A stretch of 39,161 bases of DNA from IMG/VR virus record IMGVR_UViG_2706794670_000014; one strand, given 5' to 3'. Origin of the DNA: a virus. Its lineage: Duplodnaviria > Heunggongvirae > Uroviricota > Caudoviricetes. A program made the position numbers and the translations under genes. Under the pieces are notes generated by a model. It did not search any database, was not told the origin of the DNA, and worked only from the letters and a program-made list of their open reading frames with translations. Positions 1-29,527 of this stretch are shown here, piece after piece; positions within the stretch are counted from its first letter, which is position 1, and each line of letters begins with the position of its first letter.

Positions 1-459
1 TTATTCAGTCGGCAGTGCTACGCGCCAGGGGAGCAGTTCGCCGACCCGGTTTATCGGCCAGTCGGCTATGACGTCAAGGACATAGCGGAGGTAGCTTTCT
101 GGCTCCACTCCGTTCAGTTTGCACGTCCCGATCAGGCTGTACAGCAGCGCTCCCCGCTCTCCTCCATGATCCGAACCGAAGAACAGGTAGTTTTTGCGGC
201 CCAGACTGACCATCCGCAACGCATTTTCAGCGATGTTATTGTCCGCCTCAGCCCAGCCATCATCTGCATAGTACGTCAGCGCCGGCCACTGGTTCAGGGC
301 ATATGCGAACGCTTTCGCCAGTTCTGAGTGTCGCGACAGGGTTTTCATCTTTTCACGCAGCCAGCTTTCCAGGGATTTCAGCAGCGGTTTCGTTTTCAAC
401 TGACGTTCGGCAAGGCGCTGTTTCAGCAGGAAGATGTCGTCAGAAGAGATGTCGTTCAT
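1..459 (-). mobile_element. IS66-family transposase (TnpC-like) gene, 3' fragment only, N-terminally truncated
   Basis: The 152-aa translation ends in motifs typical of IS66 transposase C-termini (LNQWPAL, DNNIAENALR, LGRKNYLF, NRVGELLPW). The in-frame sequence upstream of 460 loses the resemblance and hits a stop at 520-522. Confidence 0.7.
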
Positions 460-564
460 AAGCCCGTATTTTACCGGGCTTATTCTGTGACAACCAGGAT
501 AAAGAGATTTACAGCATGGTCAGGGAGGTCAGCAGCCGCTTAGGCTGTCTATAGCGCGGCGATT

Positions 565-650
565 TTTTTGATACCGATTTGCATTTCATTTGATACCGCT
601 GAAAAACGCCGATACGCAACTTATTTGATACTAAATCGGCGCTTTTCTTT
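565..650. repeat. Prophage right-end region with three direct copies of a TTTGATACCG-type motif (putative transposase-binding sites R1-R3) and a terminator-like hairpin
   Basis: TTTGATACCG at 567-576 and 589-598, TTTGATACT at 624-632. Hairpin CGCCGAT (607-613) / ATCGGCG (635-641) followed by a T-rich run 642-650. The same motif occurs inverted at the other prophage end. Confidence 0.6.
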
Positions 651-677
651 TGAGTTTTAGAATGAGTTTTTAAGCGT

Positions 678-1415
678 TCATTCACTCTCTTTCAAACCAG
701 TTTTAACTGTTTGTGGTTTTGGGTAAGGCTGGACTTTGAATAGCTTTGTGTTAAGGCGTTTTCTGGCTCTCTTGTCCAGAAACCGGATGTAACGAAACTG
801 ACGGAATTTATGAACACTGGCTCTGTCGATATTAGCCCGCAGATGTTCACCTCGCTGTCCTCCTCGTTTGATTGCATTCTTGCAAATCTCGTGATACCAC
901 TCGCCATCAAGTTCATAGAATGTTGTTTCATGACTGCCTACATAATCAAAATTGCTTGCCTGGTACACGACACCAAGACAGCCACAACGCTCATCTGCAA
1001 ACGACTGAACCCACTGCACCTGCGGATAAAGTTGTCTGATTAGTTTGAGCGCGTAACTGATTGCCCTTGATTCGGAGTTTCTCGGCATACAGTCATGCAG
1101 CCATAACCGGTTAAGCTCCATATATTCGCGGTTCTGCGTGCCAGTTACGACGCGTGCACCATTGTTTGGATTAAGGGCATAACCCCATTGCATTACGCCA
1201 ACCAGCTCCCGTTCTGAAAATATGCCCAGATGAAGGTAGGAATTATTTACGAAACGATGGCTGTAATGTTTATTGACGACGACCAGCCGGGCCAGCCAGC
1301 AACTTATTGTCTCAACCCGTAACTCACGGGAGCCATAACCGACGATATTGTCGTTATAGTGAATAAGTTCAGGCGTGCTGATGATACGGGATGTAACTTG
1401 CTTTCTGTTCCCCAC
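678..1415 (-). CDS. mom: Mom-like DNA modification protein, assigned by position directly downstream of and overlapping com; start codon uncertain
   Basis: Long ORF 678..1610 in a different frame from com. Com's stop at 1369-1371 lies inside it, as in Mu where com overlaps the mom start. A GTG at 1415 preceded by AAGGAAA would give about 245 aa, close to the size I recall for Mu Mom. Confidence 0.55.
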
Positions 1416-1569
1416 GACAGGATTTCCTTGTGTATGTGGGGTGCTCTGTGGCGCTCTGAGATGTGATTTGATTGAGGGTTTTACAGCGCGGACATTTAAC
1501 TTCCAGATAACTGAAGCTGGCTCGTGCCAGTAGCTTGTTACAATGTCGGCACCGTATGTTTCGATACAT
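1369..1569 (-). CDS. com: Com-like zinc-finger translational activator of mom
   Basis: The translation from the ATG at 1569 contains [10 protein letters not shown]...EVKCPRCK, matching the Cys4 zinc-finger pattern of Mu Com. AGGAGG lies upstream. Confidence 0.75.
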
Positions 1570-1610
1570 GGCCGCATAACCTCCTGCTTTGTTGTTGATA
1601 TCTTTATCAC

Positions 1611-1705
1611 TCAATCGATCGACAAAAACGATCGATTTGATTTATTTAATTGATACAACAAATAACACGAAATGTCATTAGCGAAAATTTATGAGTTTGA
1701 TCACT
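1611..1705. promoter_or_regulatory. Putative Dam-methylation-sensitive control region upstream of com-mom (cluster of GATC sites in AT-rich DNA)
   Basis: GATC at 1617-1620, 1630-1633 and 1699-1702 within about 130 bp upstream of com. The Mu mom promoter is known to be controlled through clustered GATC sites. Confidence 0.4.
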
Positions 1706-1825
1706 AATTTTAAACGGTGCTGTAACGCATAAGTGCTGAATGATTGTACATTTGAATACCGCAAAGCAAACAAATCAACTAATTTATAGAAGTCAATTGG
1801 TTAATTGCCAGCGTAAGAGGCTGCT

Positions 1826-2119
1826 ATGGACAATCATGTAACGACGAGAAATCGAAAAATGATTGAAAATGCGGAAATCTATAATGATTATTTTTCCGAT
1901 TATTCAGATGCCTGCAAATACAGTTCGAGTGCGGGAGAGTTCATATGCTTCAACTTTTTTATTAAATCTTATGTTTTTCCTCCACAGCAAGAAGATGGAG
2001 GTGTGCCACCTCCTGAAATCACTTTGCACCGTATAGCCTCCGTCTCAATGATGGAGCAACAGGCTAATGAGCTGTATAGCATTCTGGGAACGATTCTACA
2101 AAAGCGTGAATCGGACTAA
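1826..2119 (+). CDS. Hypothetical 97-aa protein in an AT-rich region, oriented opposite to the lytic genes
   Basis: ATG at 1826 with AAGAGG six nt upstream. No similarity recognised. It diverges from com across an AT-rich spacer. Confidence 0.45.
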   Translation: MDNHVTTRNRKMIENAEIYNDYFSDYSDACKYSSSAGEFICFNFFIKSYVFPPQQEDGGVPPPEITLHRIASVSMMEQQANELYSILGTILQKRESD

Positions 2120-2286: not shown

Positions 2287-2541
2287 TTACATCATGGTAC
2301 TGTCAGTTCCGGGCTGAGCCGGGTCTGGTTGCTCTGGCTGCGCGTCGGTTTTCGGCTCATTATCAGCATCACTGGCCGCAACTGCTGGCCCAATAAGTTT
2401 TGCCAGCACTTCATCAACGTAAGTGTCGATTTGTGCCTCAAAATCCTTGCGGACCTGCGCTTTCAGCAACTTATTTACTTCACCGGAATACAGTGCCTGT
2501 TTTACCAGGTCTTCAGTGACGGTGCCTTTAATTTCTGGCAT
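2287..2541 (-). CDS. Hypothetical 84-aa protein with an acidic, Pro-rich C-terminus
   Basis: ATG at 2541 preceded by AAGGAGG at ideal spacing. Lies downstream of the esterase-like gene. Confidence 0.55.
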   Translation of the reverse strand: MPEIKGTVTEDLVKQALYSGEVNKLLKAQVRKDFEAQIDTYVDEVLAKLIGPAVAASDADNEPKTDAQPEQPDPAQPGTDSTMM

Positions 2542-2576: not shown

Positions 2577-2759
2577 TCAGGGCTGGGTCGGGTCTTTTGG
2601 GAGCGGAGTTACCTGCGCTGTTTTACTGAGTTTTTCAGCTGCTGCGTCCTCAATTTTGCGGCGAACATAATTTCTGATGGCCTTATAACCACCACTCACC
2701 AGATATAACGCACATACTGCCGTGCAGAAATACAATAAAATAAGCTGTAAAAATGTCAT
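2577..2759 (-). CDS. Hypothetical 60-aa small membrane protein (one N-terminal transmembrane helix)
   Basis: ATG at 2759 preceded by GGGAGGG. Hydrophobic stretch FLQLILLYFCTAVCALYLV followed by a basic tail. The ORF track begins it at an upstream TTG. Confidence 0.5.
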   Translation of the reverse strand: MTFLQLILLYFCTAVCALYLVSGGYKAIRNYVRRKIEDAAAEKLSKTAQVTPLPKDPTQP

Positions 2760-2855
2760 TATCCCTCCCAATTATTGACATGGTGTTGACACCGGTAATA
2801 TCTGTTAGGTAAAAAGGTGCACTGCATTTTTTGCTTTGGATATAACGATCTTTTT

Positions 2856-2903: not shown

Positions 2904-4958
2904 TTACGCGTTATTCACTTCCACCACGATACTGTCAATCAGTACCGGGTAAGTCGCATTTTTAGTGATATCGGTCACGCGCAACTTGTCTGCCGTAAAC
3001 GTGCCGACCGGAGACTGCGACAGCATGAATGGTGTCCCGTCCTTACCATCAATGACCGGCGTCACCTCAATACTGTTGTTACCGGCAAAACGGAAGCCCA
3101 GCGTATGCCATTCGTTATTAAATGCGCCGAATGACCCCAGCTTCGTGTTCTGCGCCGTGTTTCCTTTGTGATACATCACGTTAAGGTCTGTGGCATCGCT
3201 CTGTACGTAGAACGATGCCAGCAGGTTATGACCGGCATTTCCTTCCAGAGTAACCCCTTGCGGCAGGGCAGAAACCGGCCAGTACAGCGCCAGTGCGTAC
3301 TGATTAGCCGTAAGCGCGCCATCGAGTTTAAAACGACAACTGACAAGACCACCTTTACCCAGCAGGTCCGCACCATTACCAGCATCATGCTCAAGGTACC
3401 AGGGGGCTCTTCCTGTTTCCTTGGTCAGTTTCATTGCCTTACCCCCGCTGGCTCCGGCATCATCCACGATTTGAGCCTTGCCACCTCCGGCAGCCCAACC
3501 CTGTGGTGTCAACCGTCCTTCAGACTCAGATGCCCGGTAAGCAAATAGCGTACTCATCGTCGTGGTGTCTGCGGGTGGCGTGGACGGTTTTGATGGTGTA
3601 TCAGGTGACGGCTTCTCATCCGGTGGTGTCACGGTCTGCCCACGCATCAGTTCAGCCGTGCGCCCTGCATGGAGCATAATAGCTGAGGCCAGACGGTCTG
3701 AAATGACGCCCCTGCGTGCCCATGAGCTGAAATGGCTGTCACGCTGTGTCGAAACAAAACTGCCCTGGGTTCGGGATGCTGCACCGTAATACCCGACAGC
3801 CACAATATCCGGGTCTTCCGCCGGAGCATTCGTTGGCGTGCTCTGTCCATTCTCATCCGTCAGGAACGGTACAAAGAAAATTTTCTGTGCTTCCTTGCCT
3901 TTGTAGCCACCGTATACTGCCTCATATTTATCGGTGCCAGCGTTTTTCCAGTAATACGTGGTATCACCGCAAATCCACGGCACCGTGGTGGCATTTCCAC
4001 TCACGCACTGCGCAGCAAGCGGAGCCAGGTCAGTTCTGAACTGCTGAACCATGGCCGTGAATAAACTATTATGCTGCTGGCTTCCTGAGGCAAGGTCTGC
4101 CTCTCCCTGCATCCAGACCACAGCCAGAAGTTTGTTTTTCGGGTTTTTCGCCAGCGCGACTTTGGTGCGGCTTACCAGGTCCTGATACAGAGGTTTACCG
4201 GCCCCCCAGCGTGAAGAATCAGCGGAAGCACCGCTGGCCTCACTGAATGAGCCGTCGGCTCCAGTGGTGAATGCTGACCCGCCACGACAACAGGGCACCA
4301 GAAGTATCCCGGCATTCTGTGGGATATAGGGAAGCAGTTTTTTGGCAATATGCAACCCCTGACCGACAGTCCCGTACTGGCCTTTTGCCAGATCAGCTTT
4401 CGGGTGGTTTATCCCGCTCATATCCTGAACATCATGCAGGCAGTGGTCTGCCGGAATGATGTCGTTGTATGTACACGACGTACCGTTGGGCGTTACCGTA
4501 CTGCGGCGTGCCAGTTGCTTAATGCGTGGGTCCGGGCGGTCAAACGAATCCGGTAACGGCAGCCCCTCGCCGTAGGCCATGCCATTTGACTGACCCGCGA
4601 GAATGACAACAAAGTAATATTCCGGCTCTGAACTGCTGCCATTCGTGCTACCGGAAGGCCCGGCGTTATCCGGTGCATTCCAGTCGGAGGGCGTGAGCGT
4701 TCCGGCCACGTCAGATGTGATTGGAATGATGCCAGTCACGCCTGAACTGGTGATTTCTGCACTGGGATTACCGGATACCGGCATTACCCATAATGGCTCT
4801 TTCGTGCTGAAGCGGATCACGCAGTCTGCGAAGGTGATCCCCCCTTTATTACCCGAAGGGCGGAAAGGGCTTTCAATAAATGCCACCGTGCCACCGGCAA
4901 CCTTGACTGAAAACTCTCCGGGCATGGCGGAGAGCATTTTCCACTTGGAGTCTGACAT
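2904..4958 (-). CDS. 684-aa protein with a sialate O-acetylesterase (SASA / SGNH hydrolase) domain, resembling prophage NanS-p-type esterases; likely cargo
   Basis: Conserved blocks VVILAGQSNGMAYGEG and VVWMQGEADLA match the catalytic-serine and second signature blocks of the SASA family. Long N- and C-terminal extensions. Sits between gin and com-mom, where Mu has no gene. Confidence 0.65.
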   Translation of the reverse strand: MSDSKWKMLSAMPGEFSVKVAGGTVAFIESPFRPSGNKGGITFADCVIRFSTKEPLWVMPVSGNPSAEITSSGVTGIIPITSDVAGTLTPSDWNAPDNAGPSGSTNGSSSEPEYYFVVILAGQSNGMAYGEGLPLPDSFDRPDPRIKQLARRSTVTPNGTSCTYNDIIPADHCLHDVQDMSGINHPKADLAKGQYGTVGQGLHIAKKLLPYIPQNAGILLVPCCRGGSAFTTGADGSFSEASGASADSSRWGAGKPLYQDLVSRTKVALAKNPKNKLLAVVWMQGEADLASGSQQHNSLFTAMVQQFRTDLAPLAAQCVSGNATTVPWICGDTTYYWKNAGTDKYEAVYGGYKGKEAQKIFFVPFLTDENGQSTPTNAPAEDPDIVAVGYYGAASRTQGSFVSTQRDSHFSSWARRGVISDRLASAIMLHAGRTAELMRGQTVTPPDEKPSPDTPSKPSTPPADTTTMSTLFAYRASESEGRLTPQGWAAGGGKAQIVDDAGASGGKAMKLTKETGRAPWYLEHDAGNGADLLGKGGLVSCRFKLDGALTANQYALALYWPVSALPQGVTLEGNAGHNLLASFYVQSDATDLNVMYHKGNTAQNTKLGSFGAFNNEWHTLGFRFAGNNSIEVTPVIDGKDGTPFMLSQSPVGTFTADKLRVTDITKNATYPVLIDSIVVEVNNA

Positions 4959-28545: not shown

Positions 28546-29046
28546 TCAGACTTTCGGCAAATCGTAACGACATAACCATTCATCCGCCGAACGGCGGGCC
28601 TCAAGACCGGGGAGTTTTACCCCCTTTGAATAAATCCAGCGGATATACTGCTTACAGGACGCGGGCATCTGCCCGGCATTGATAAGGCGCAGGAGCGTGG
28701 AGTTGCGAAAGTTCGTTTCACCGGCCCAGAAAATCCAGGAGGCCAGCGCCACCGTCTGACCACGGGTAAGCGGCACCTGAACATGACGATCGATAGCCGC
28801 AAAGGCCCATTTCATGTCCTTTTCCAGCAGCTCCAGACACTCTTCATCAGTTTTTGTCATCCCCGGTTTCACATCCGGGCCGGTATGGCCGTAACAGATG
28901 GTGGGGGTGCCGGTGGGATCAATGTACGTGGTGTTTTCTTTCCCTTCCCAGTAGCCGGTGTAGTGCGTGGCAATGGTGAACGTCCCGGCTCCGGCCAGAA
29001 CAAGGGCAATCAGCTTTTTACGCAGGGGTGCGGGGAGTTTTGGCAT
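28546..29046 (-). CDS. SAR endolysin (lysozyme with an N-terminal signal-arrest-release domain)
   Basis: N-terminal hydrophobic LIALVLAGAGTFTIA followed by a lysozyme-like catalytic region (YIDPTGTPTICYGHT). Confidence 0.8.
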   Translation of the reverse strand: MPKLPAPLRKKLIALVLAGAGTFTIATHYTGYWEGKENTTYIDPTGTPTICYGHTGPDVKPGMTKTDEECLELLEKDMKWAFAAIDRHVQVPLTRGQTVALASWIFWAGETNFRNSTLLRLINAGQMPASCKQYIRWIYSKGVKLPGLEARRSADEWLCRYDLPKV

Positions 29047-29527
29047 TGTTACGCTGTCTCATGGTGTTCTCTGAGTCAGCGTAACCGTGAGGAAAAGGGG
29101 GCAGGANNNNNNNNNNNNNNNNNNNNNNNNNNNNNNNNNNNNNNNNNNNNNNNNNNNNNNNNNNNNNNNNNNNNNNNNNNNNNNNNNNNNNNNNNNNNNN
29201 NNNNNNNNNNNNNNNNNNNNNNNNNNNNNNNNNNNNNNNNNNNNNNNNNNNNNNNNNNNNNNNNNNNNNNNNNNNNNNNNNNNNNNNNNNNNNNNNNNNN
29301 NNNNNNNNNNNNNNNNNNNNNNNNNNNNNNNNNNNNNNNNNNNNNNNNNNNNNNNNAGCAGGTTCAATCCCCTGACGGTGCAGTTCAGCACTGATCACAT
29401 CAACCAGGTCCCGCAGCGTGCCGGGCCAGTTCTTTTTCAGCTCATCATCAGGAATATCATCCAGACGGTCAATCAGCGCGTGCAGCTGTTCGCTGTCACC
29501 AAACATGCTCATCTGTGTTTCAGCCAT
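29018..29527 (-). CDS. Mor/C-family transcription activator (N-terminus visible, remainder masked; true stop unresolved)
   Basis: The N-terminal 57 aa resemble the Mor N-terminal dimerisation region. N-run 29107-29356 covers the rest, so the ORF-track end is not reliable. Confidence 0.5.
   Translation of the reverse strand: MAETQMSMFGDSEQLHALIDRLDDIPDDELKKNWPGTLRDLVDVISAELHRQGIEPAXXXXXXXXXXXXXXXXXXXXXXXXXXXXXXXXXXXXXXXXXXXXXXXXXXXXXXXXXXXXXXXXXXXXXXXXXXXXXXXXXXXXLPPFPHGYADSENTMRQRNNAKTPRTPA

Follow-up and report, generated by a model that had tools for sequence, protein, structure and literature searches.

Where does translation of mom begin when its reading frame is open across the whole of the preceding gene, com? 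This question is raised by the com-mom locus of IMG/VR record IMGVR_UViG_2706794670_000014, a stretch of 39,161 nucleotides (nt) referred to here in its entirety as the window. The window is a Mu-like Escherichia coli prophage, and the locus lies at its right end, read on the minus strand. The Mom-frame open reading frame (ORF) extends from 1610, directly behind a TGA at 1613..1611, to a stop at 680..678 (310 codons). The two frames lie one nucleotide apart, the second position of a com codon being the first base of a mom codon, and the canonical starts in the mom frame from 1610 to 1300 are just GTG 1610, ATG 1577, and GTG 1415. GTG 1610 was tried and rejected: it has no Shine-Dalgarno (SD) sequence, follows directly on the TGA, and lies upstream of com. 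The original prediction, made from the sequence alone, had placed com at 1369..1569 with an overlapping Mom frame open to 1610, all of which is correct on the minus strand, and had favored GTG 1415 as the start of a product of about 245 amino acids (aa). Here, we find it very probable that mom starts at GTG 1415 and gives a 245-aa product, as part of a Mu-type com-mom operon in which a hairpin would mask the start and Com would unmask it. RefSeq already carries this start, and the arrangement itself is not new.

On an identical E. coli sequence, RefSeq/PGAP gives com as 1569..1369 (WP_014334043.1) and mom as 1415..678 (WP_000528246.1), and the same starts are annotated for both genes on a 95%-identical relative. 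Window positions 560 to 1900 are 100% identical in DNA to E. coli DLI.5a (NZ_CP103972.1), a RefSeq copy whose coding sequences show no difference from the window. Within the window's own lineage, 17 unique haplotypes were compared (the close haplotypes), and GTG 1415 is unchanged in all of them. In 14 of the 17, a TAA stands in the mom frame at 1499..1497, between ATG 1577 and GTG 1415. It arises where a com valine codon reads GTA; this codon is GTT in the window and GTC in one relative. All three encode the same Com residue, and the other frame reads Leu, Ser, or stop. When com was resampled synonymously, the probability of an open mom frame across it was 0.04 to 0.08, and chance alone could leave the frame open to 1610 in this haplotype. 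Because the frame is closed in 14 of the 17 haplotypes and may open by chance at this rate, ATG 1577 is rejected as the start. The original prediction had also considered it the less likely codon, at only 2 nt after an AGGAGG, and the intervening TAA bears this out.

The variable sites of the 17 haplotypes change frame at the GTG. In 1569..1416, which belongs to com only, 7 of 9 fall at com third positions, equivalent to second positions in mom. Mom third positions hold 4 of the 7 variable sites in the com-mom overlap and 61 of the 83 in the mom-only part. Judged by these substitutions, there is no Mom-frame coding constraint upstream of 1415. Conserved Mom residues in that region would have spoken against the start; instead, the frame is interrupted by stops in relatives, and the substitutions there are those expected of com.

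A comparative set of about 100 related loci, fetched with the Mom protein, agrees with this position. The homologous GTG-GGN (Val-Gly) is found in Mu, Edwardsiella (L006), Scandinavium (L009), and other lineages, and the mom frame is closed one codon (L069) and four codons (L009) upstream of it. In other relatives, an ATG or TTG lies only a few codons from the start position ('EMKRAHTSRIL', 'IMKHINTSRIL', 'LMAQKLSR', and 'MTMKKLSYKNASR'). Alignment with Mu Mom and Com, which the original prediction had named as a check, places the Mu GUG start (231-aa Mom, PDB 8BV8) no more than two residues from GTG 1415: residue 4 of the 232-residue 8BV8 chain falls on ORF residue 70. Mu Mom is described in the literature as a protein of 231 aa, which matches the GTG (Val) of 'IVGKEK' in the Mu frame, and the Mu GUG start is located in the stem of a translation-inhibition stem-loop (TIS) (PMC6483171). 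In the Mu RefSeq record NC_000929.1 (L001), mom is annotated at 828..1553 from an upstream ATG, as 241 aa. Compared with the 231-aa protein of the biochemical and structural literature, this coding sequence (CDS) appears about 10 codons too long, which looks like an annotation inconsistency.

Both gene products are readily assigned to their families. Com matches Pfam PF10122 (Zn_ribbon_Com, E=7.5e-13) and carries a CCCC zinc ribbon formed by Cys7, Cys10, Cys27, and Cys30, with a CxxC...CxxC spacing identical to that of Mu Com, with which it aligns (MKSIRCKNCNKLL...). A phmmer search of window Com against PDB sequences gave no match. Residues 96 to 298 of the Mom-frame ORF match Pfam Mom (PF25680, E=1.6e-77) over profile positions 1 to 202 of 202, and residues 70 to 298 match chain residues 4 to 232 of 8BV8 (Mu Mom, S124A; E=5.7e-123). 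The match to the Mom family is full length for both the profile and the solved Mu Mom structure. Window Mom shares about 78% identity with Mu Mom (tblastn), has Ser at the residue mutated in the S124A crystal form (the 8BV8 segment there is PRNSEARAISY), and aligns without gaps over the region matching Mu Mom residues ~175 to 209, the helix-turn-helix (HTH)-like insertion required for activity. By homology, the window mom product is a GNAT-fold adenine-modifying enzyme of the Mom family (PF25680). Mu Mom is a GNAT-fold enzyme that hypermodifies adenine in double-stranded DNA using Gly-tRNA(Gly) (PMC13219725). At 678..716 (minus strand), a 12-residue C-terminal extension continues past the ...KVQPYPK end of Mu Mom and is conserved in the close E. 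coli lineage.

The start codon lies within a predicted hairpin equivalent to the Mu TIS. Its outer stem pairs CCCCAC (1441..1436) with GUGGGG (1415..1410) over 6 bp (C1441-G1410, C1440-G1411, C1439-G1412, C1438-G1413, A1437-U1414, and C1436-G1415). Within the loop, an inner helix joins 1431-1429 and 1427-1426 with 1421-1417, in which SD bases G1427 and G1426 pair with C1421 and C1420. Sequestration of the mom GTG and its SD in a stem-loop is predicted in silico for the window. The original prediction had suggested folding the 3' region of com around 1400-1440 to find a stem-loop over the GTG; the GTG indeed forms part of the 3' arm of a 6-bp stem whose loop contains the SD, and the positions are refined to about 1410..1441 for this hairpin and 1441..1454 for a Com hairpin, slightly upstream of the suggested region. 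The minimum free energy (MFE) of the window TIS is -12.6 kcal/mol (z=-2.3), and that of the Mu hairpin is -9.5 kcal/mol (z=-3.4). The window reads GAGCGCC-ACA-GAGCA-CCCCAC-ATACACAAGGAAATCCTGTC-GTGGGG, and Mu reads GAAUGCC-UGC-GAGCA-UCCCAC-GGAGAAACAUU-GUGGGA. All aligned lineages have GGAG or AGGA in the TIS loop.

Pairing was scored in an alignment of 14 distinct sequences (A1), in which 96% of the pair cells are paired, versus 23 to 60% when the 3' partners were slid; for the TIS, the figure is 100%. The outermost TIS pair covaries (C-G in nine sequences, U-A in four, and U-G in one), and one variant has a C-to-U change opposite the G of GUG that keeps a wobble pair. RNAalifold also gives the 6-bp TIS, together with the inner two pairs of the Com hairpin. 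The invariant TIS positions include synonymous com sites (Pro CCC, Gly GGG, and Cys TGT), and because these sites do not vary, they point to constraint at the RNA level. The pattern CCCAC-N8-30-GTGGG, with one match in the window versus 1.1 expected by chance, provides no evidence alone, and an Rfam scan of 500-2400 at E<=1 returned an insignificant IS102 match only and no curated family for a com-mom RNA element. Judged across lineages, the conserved position of the overlap, the start codon, and the hairpin in more than 10 divergent com-mom lineages is far beyond chance.

Directly 5' of the TIS lies a putative Com-binding hairpin, identified in the Mu register. Its pairs would be G1454-C1441, G1452-C1443, and the closing pair C1451-G1444, with a C1453/A1442 mismatch and a 6-nt loop, CACAGA. 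The segment contains two perfect GAG(N)2CC motifs, GAGCGCC (1456..1450) and GAGCACC (1446..1440). For Mu, SELEX (systematic evolution of ligands by exponential enrichment) yielded GAG(N)2CC as the core Com motif, in a bipartite pair with an invariant C-G closing pair (PMC6483171). All four Com-hairpin pairs show two-sided changes among the 14 sequences (A-U/G-C/G-U, U-A/C-G, G-C/A-U, and C-G/U-A). Several of these compensatory changes alter residues of the Com tail (Ala/His to Thr/Cys), and for this reason the RNA site appears to outweigh the protein sequence at the tail. In the Mu literature, the Com tail reportedly lacks order and is not needed for RNA binding (PMC6483171).

One base is shared by the two predicted hairpins. 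C1441 (alignment column 25) has two possible partners: with G1454 it would form the outermost pair of the Com hairpin, and with G1410 that of the TIS. Positions 1454/1441/1410 covary among the 14 sequences so that both pairs are always possible: A/U/A and G/C/G, with the intermediates G/U/A and A/U/G. A competition for this base, in which Com would lock C1441 into its own hairpin and so start unzipping the TIS, is a tentative idea that we hold to be rather unlikely, with few independent changes behind it. The shared-base idea was not found stated in the Com-mom literature looked at, and it is an only mildly new point.

By analogy with Mu, the most likely mechanism would be as follows. Late transcription would produce a com-mom mRNA, and com would be translated from its own strong SD, AGGAGG, at ATG 1569. 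In the free mRNA, the GTG would lie in the 3' arm of the 6-bp stem and the AAGGA SD in the helix inside its loop, and ribosomes would not initiate. Com would then bind the small hairpin directly 5' (1454..1441), with its two GAG(N)2CC motifs, C-G closing pair, and loop GA, and destabilize the inhibitory stem to expose the SD and GTG. Mom would thus be made only late in infection, which would limit its toxicity. The overlap, the start, and the predicted hairpins of the Mu arrangement envisaged in the original prediction all stand, and the unmasking of the mom start by Com is carried over from the Mu literature. The anatomy of the locus (the ORFs, their family membership, the start position, and the predicted hairpins with their conservation and covariation) can be read from the alignments and folds. 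Com binding and Com-dependent translation of mom in this element would follow from the experiments on Mu (PMC6483171).

Several points weigh against this reading. Com binding and Com dependence in this element are proposed by analogy with Mu. Five of the six TIS pairs hardly vary, four being invariant and one changed on one side only, and the alignment offers these five conservation, not covariation. The fold of the 68-nt region is not unusually stable (z=-1.2), nor is that of a 63-nt region (z=-1.4); only the isolated hairpins stand out. The window lineage carries the C/A mismatch at 1453/1442 in the Com hairpin, where the near-identical relative L028 has U-A, and the fold of the isolated 19-nt Com-hairpin segment is weak (-1.7 kcal/mol) and shifted in register. 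Finally, with the mom frame open from 1610 and an ATG present at 1577, a minor extended product might be made in the window.

A Mom initiated at ATG 1577 would have 299 aa, overlap com almost fully, use the com AGGAGG, and be independent of Com. Although this ATG is kept in all 17 close haplotypes, the TAA that is synonymous in com cuts it off from mom in 14 of them, and the prevalence of mom second positions among the variable sites of 1569..1416 argues that no coding constraint acts there. In Mu and other lineages, a stop interrupts the frame shortly before the Val-Gly start, chance would leave such a frame open with the probability given above, RefSeq uses another start, and the SD lies too near. 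A spacing of 2 nt between SD and start is too short for initiation in E. coli. We therefore regard initiation at ATG 1577 as highly improbable. A start at GTG 1415 could also be combined with coupling in cis, ribosomes on com melting the hairpin and Com binding being minor or dispensable in this lineage. The com codons span the whole hairpin and com ends 47 nt beyond the GTG, which means that ribosomes on com have to open the stem, and the weakness of the mismatched Com hairpin fits this alternative as well. However, the features recognized by Com (two GAG(N)2CC motifs, C-G closing pair, and loop GA) are kept, the Com zinc ribbon is intact, and compensatory changes at sites that alter Com amino acids argue for selection on the RNA site. 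Mu Com, moreover, reportedly acts in trans. We consider it very improbable that mom translation is driven mainly by coupling in cis; some contribution from ribosomes passing through the stem may exist.

It might also be argued that com-mom is the decaying remnant of a defective prophage, so that the choice of start has no functional meaning. The prophage adjoins a fragment of an IS66-family element, and the promoter spacer of Mu type that precedes com is far shorter than its Mu counterpart. Against decay, both ORFs are intact, Mom retains its identity to Mu Mom and its Ser at the S124A site, the third-position bias of mom variable sites (61 of 83) indicates purifying selection, and the element occurs in 233 of 5,426 complete E. 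coli genomes. There is very little chance that the locus is a mere remnant, and the Mu-type operon with its start at GTG 1415 is the reading kept below.

The window resembles Mu in gene order and in a +1-frame overlap, which from GTG 1415 to the end of the com stop codon (1369) measures 47 nt, compared with 50 nt in Mu. In both, the GUG-GGN start belongs to the 3' arm of a CCCAC/GUGGG stem whose loop holds the SD, and directly 5' of it lies a Com hairpin closed by a C-G pair, its 6-nt loop ending in GA. Both also have a CCCC zinc ribbon in Com, closely similar Mom proteins (about 78% identity), and a GATC palindrome upstream. Unlike these shared features, DNA similarity to Mu is not detectable upstream of the com stop, the blastn match starting at 1366. 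Window Com has 66 aa and a different C-terminal tail, whereas Mu Com has 62 aa. The TIS loop is 20 nt long, compared with 11 nt in Mu, and contains an additional helix in which the GG of the SD pairs with CC; the hairpin is predicted to be more stable (-12.6 versus -9.5 kcal/mol), and its outer pair is C-G where Mu has U-A. The window Com hairpin has a C/A mismatch but two perfect GAG(N)2CC motifs; the corresponding Mu sequences are GAAUGCC and GAGCAUC. Window Mom carries 2 additional N-terminal and 12 additional C-terminal residues. The spacer from GATC to the com SD is shorter, and there is no gin invertase upstream of com. PGAP names Com a "DNA-binding transcriptional regulator," whereas in the Mu literature it is an RNA-binding translational activator (PMC6483171). 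Every sequence-testable defining feature of translational control in the Mu com-mom module is present, and on this basis the locus is a member of it.

In every lineage with a recognizable com overlapping mom, com ends 25 to 55 nt past the aligned mom start and in the same relative frame; these lineages include Mu, Edwardsiella, Scandinavium, Symbiopectobacterium, Neptunomonas, Endobugula, Parathalassolituus, and several viral contigs. In distant com-mom pairs of unrelated sequence (L007, L010, L011, L068, and L012), the mom SD and/or start is likewise folded into a hairpin (z=-2.1 to -4.7). The segments concerned (L007 1130..1200, L011 1125..1200, L012 1135..1210, and similar ones of 71 to 81 nt, at -20 to -29 kcal/mol) lack CCCAC/GTGGG but form stronger hairpins. 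The principle of a start site in a hairpin appears, from these folds, to be kept through different sequences. Mom homologues without Com (L013, L014, and L070-L103, e.g., Yersinia, Serratia, and Sphingomonas records) belong to the same family at 66 to 70% identity, with their N-terminus a few to about ten codons upstream of a conserved SR motif. Unlike the overlapping pairs, they have no com zinc-ribbon ORF upstream and no CCCAC/GTGGG hairpin, and their ATG or TTG starts lie behind an ordinary GGAG; they are presumably free of Com-type translational control. A degenerate DNA pattern for Com KCPRCK added almost nothing: in viral contigs it hit 120 loci, 6 of them with Mom and mostly duplicates.

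Table 1. Coordinates of the features of the com-mom locus in the window
Feature	Position	Strand	Basis or remark
com CDS, 66 aa	ATG 1569 to stop 1371..1369	-	ORF list; Pfam; RefSeq WP_014334043.1, same coordinates
com SD, AGGAGG	1585..1580	-	10 nt before ATG 1569; 2 nt before the out-of-frame ATG 1577
mom CDS, GTG start, 245 aa	678..1415	-	Pfam; PDB 8BV8; RefSeq WP_000528246.1 at exactly these coordinates; comparative start evidence
mom initiation codon GTG	1415..1413	-	In mom frame, preceded by CAAGGAAATCCTGTC
mom SD, AAGGA	1429..1425	-	9 nt upstream of GTG; sequence and MFE fold
ATG in mom frame, rejected alternative start	1577..1575	-	2 nt after AGGAGG (1585..1580)
TIS (predicted)	1441..1410	-	MFE fold; RNAalifold; 14-sequence pairing
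Putative Com-binding hairpin, Mu register	1454..1441	-	Alignment with Mu GAAUGCCUGCGAGCAUCCCAC; compensatory changes; SELEX motif
GATC-containing palindrome AATCGATCG-N7-CGATCGATT	1613..1637	-	Inverted-repeat scan; alignment with Mu, L049, L052, and L069

The com SD is kept in 16 of the 17 close haplotypes. Further upstream, the palindrome is perfect and holds two GATC sites, where Mu has three. It is probably the counterpart of the Mu GATC cluster controlled by Dam and OxyR, and it may play the same role. Between the palindrome and the com SD, the spacer is far shorter than that of Mu. The Mu C-binding sequence ATTAT-N6-ATAAC is not evident in 1570..1664 (minus strand), and a sigma-70 promoter scan of the minus strand upstream of com gave no candidate. 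Similarity to O157-type relatives ends at about 1664. The promoter architecture may differ from that of Pmom.

Among phage records, the blastn matches were to Mu, D108, SfMu, and Yersinia Mu-like phages (about 71% identity, beginning at the com stop and continuing downstream) and to "inserted Mu-like phage" regions of Stx phages (92.6%). The prophage boundary near 550 adjoins a transposase fragment of the IS66 family (ISEc8), at 1..459; the C-terminal part of this transposase (Pfam DDE_Tnp_IS66 and IS66_C), at 1..549 (minus strand), abuts the right end. The copy in E. coli DLI.5a, otherwise identical, is flanked by ypdB instead. Because the flanks differ, the window prophage is inserted at a different site from the DLI.5a copy, apparently within an ISEc8 element.

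Upstream of com there is neither a gin invertase nor an invertible G segment. Their place is taken by an opposite-strand 86-aa ORF without a Pfam match (1859..2119, plus strand) and by 2287..2541 and 2577..2771 (both minus strand), which encode a DUF826 protein and a DUF1378 protein. A 684-aa protein encoded at 2904..4958 (minus strand) has a sialate O-acetylesterase (SASA) domain and DUF6645 and is probably an esterase-active tail fibre or spike. A C-like gene, ORF 29018..29527 (minus strand), is broken by a run of N (masked) at about 29100..29370, and its N-terminus is 38% identical over 50 aa to the Mu late activator C by tblastn. With Mu C and Mor as queries, tblastn found only these N-terminal 50 residues of a C homologue, the gene being interrupted in the window by the run of N. 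The ORF sits just upstream of ORF 28546..29046, placed like the endolysin after C in Mu, a comparison of position only.

For this widespread E. coli Mu-like prophage, the RefSeq start of mom (GTG, 245 aa) is confirmed, which has little import beyond correct annotation. As far as was found in the literature, the two-hairpin model of Com action has come from probing and mutagenesis of Mu alone. The compensatory changes described here provide support for that model at the level of sequence.

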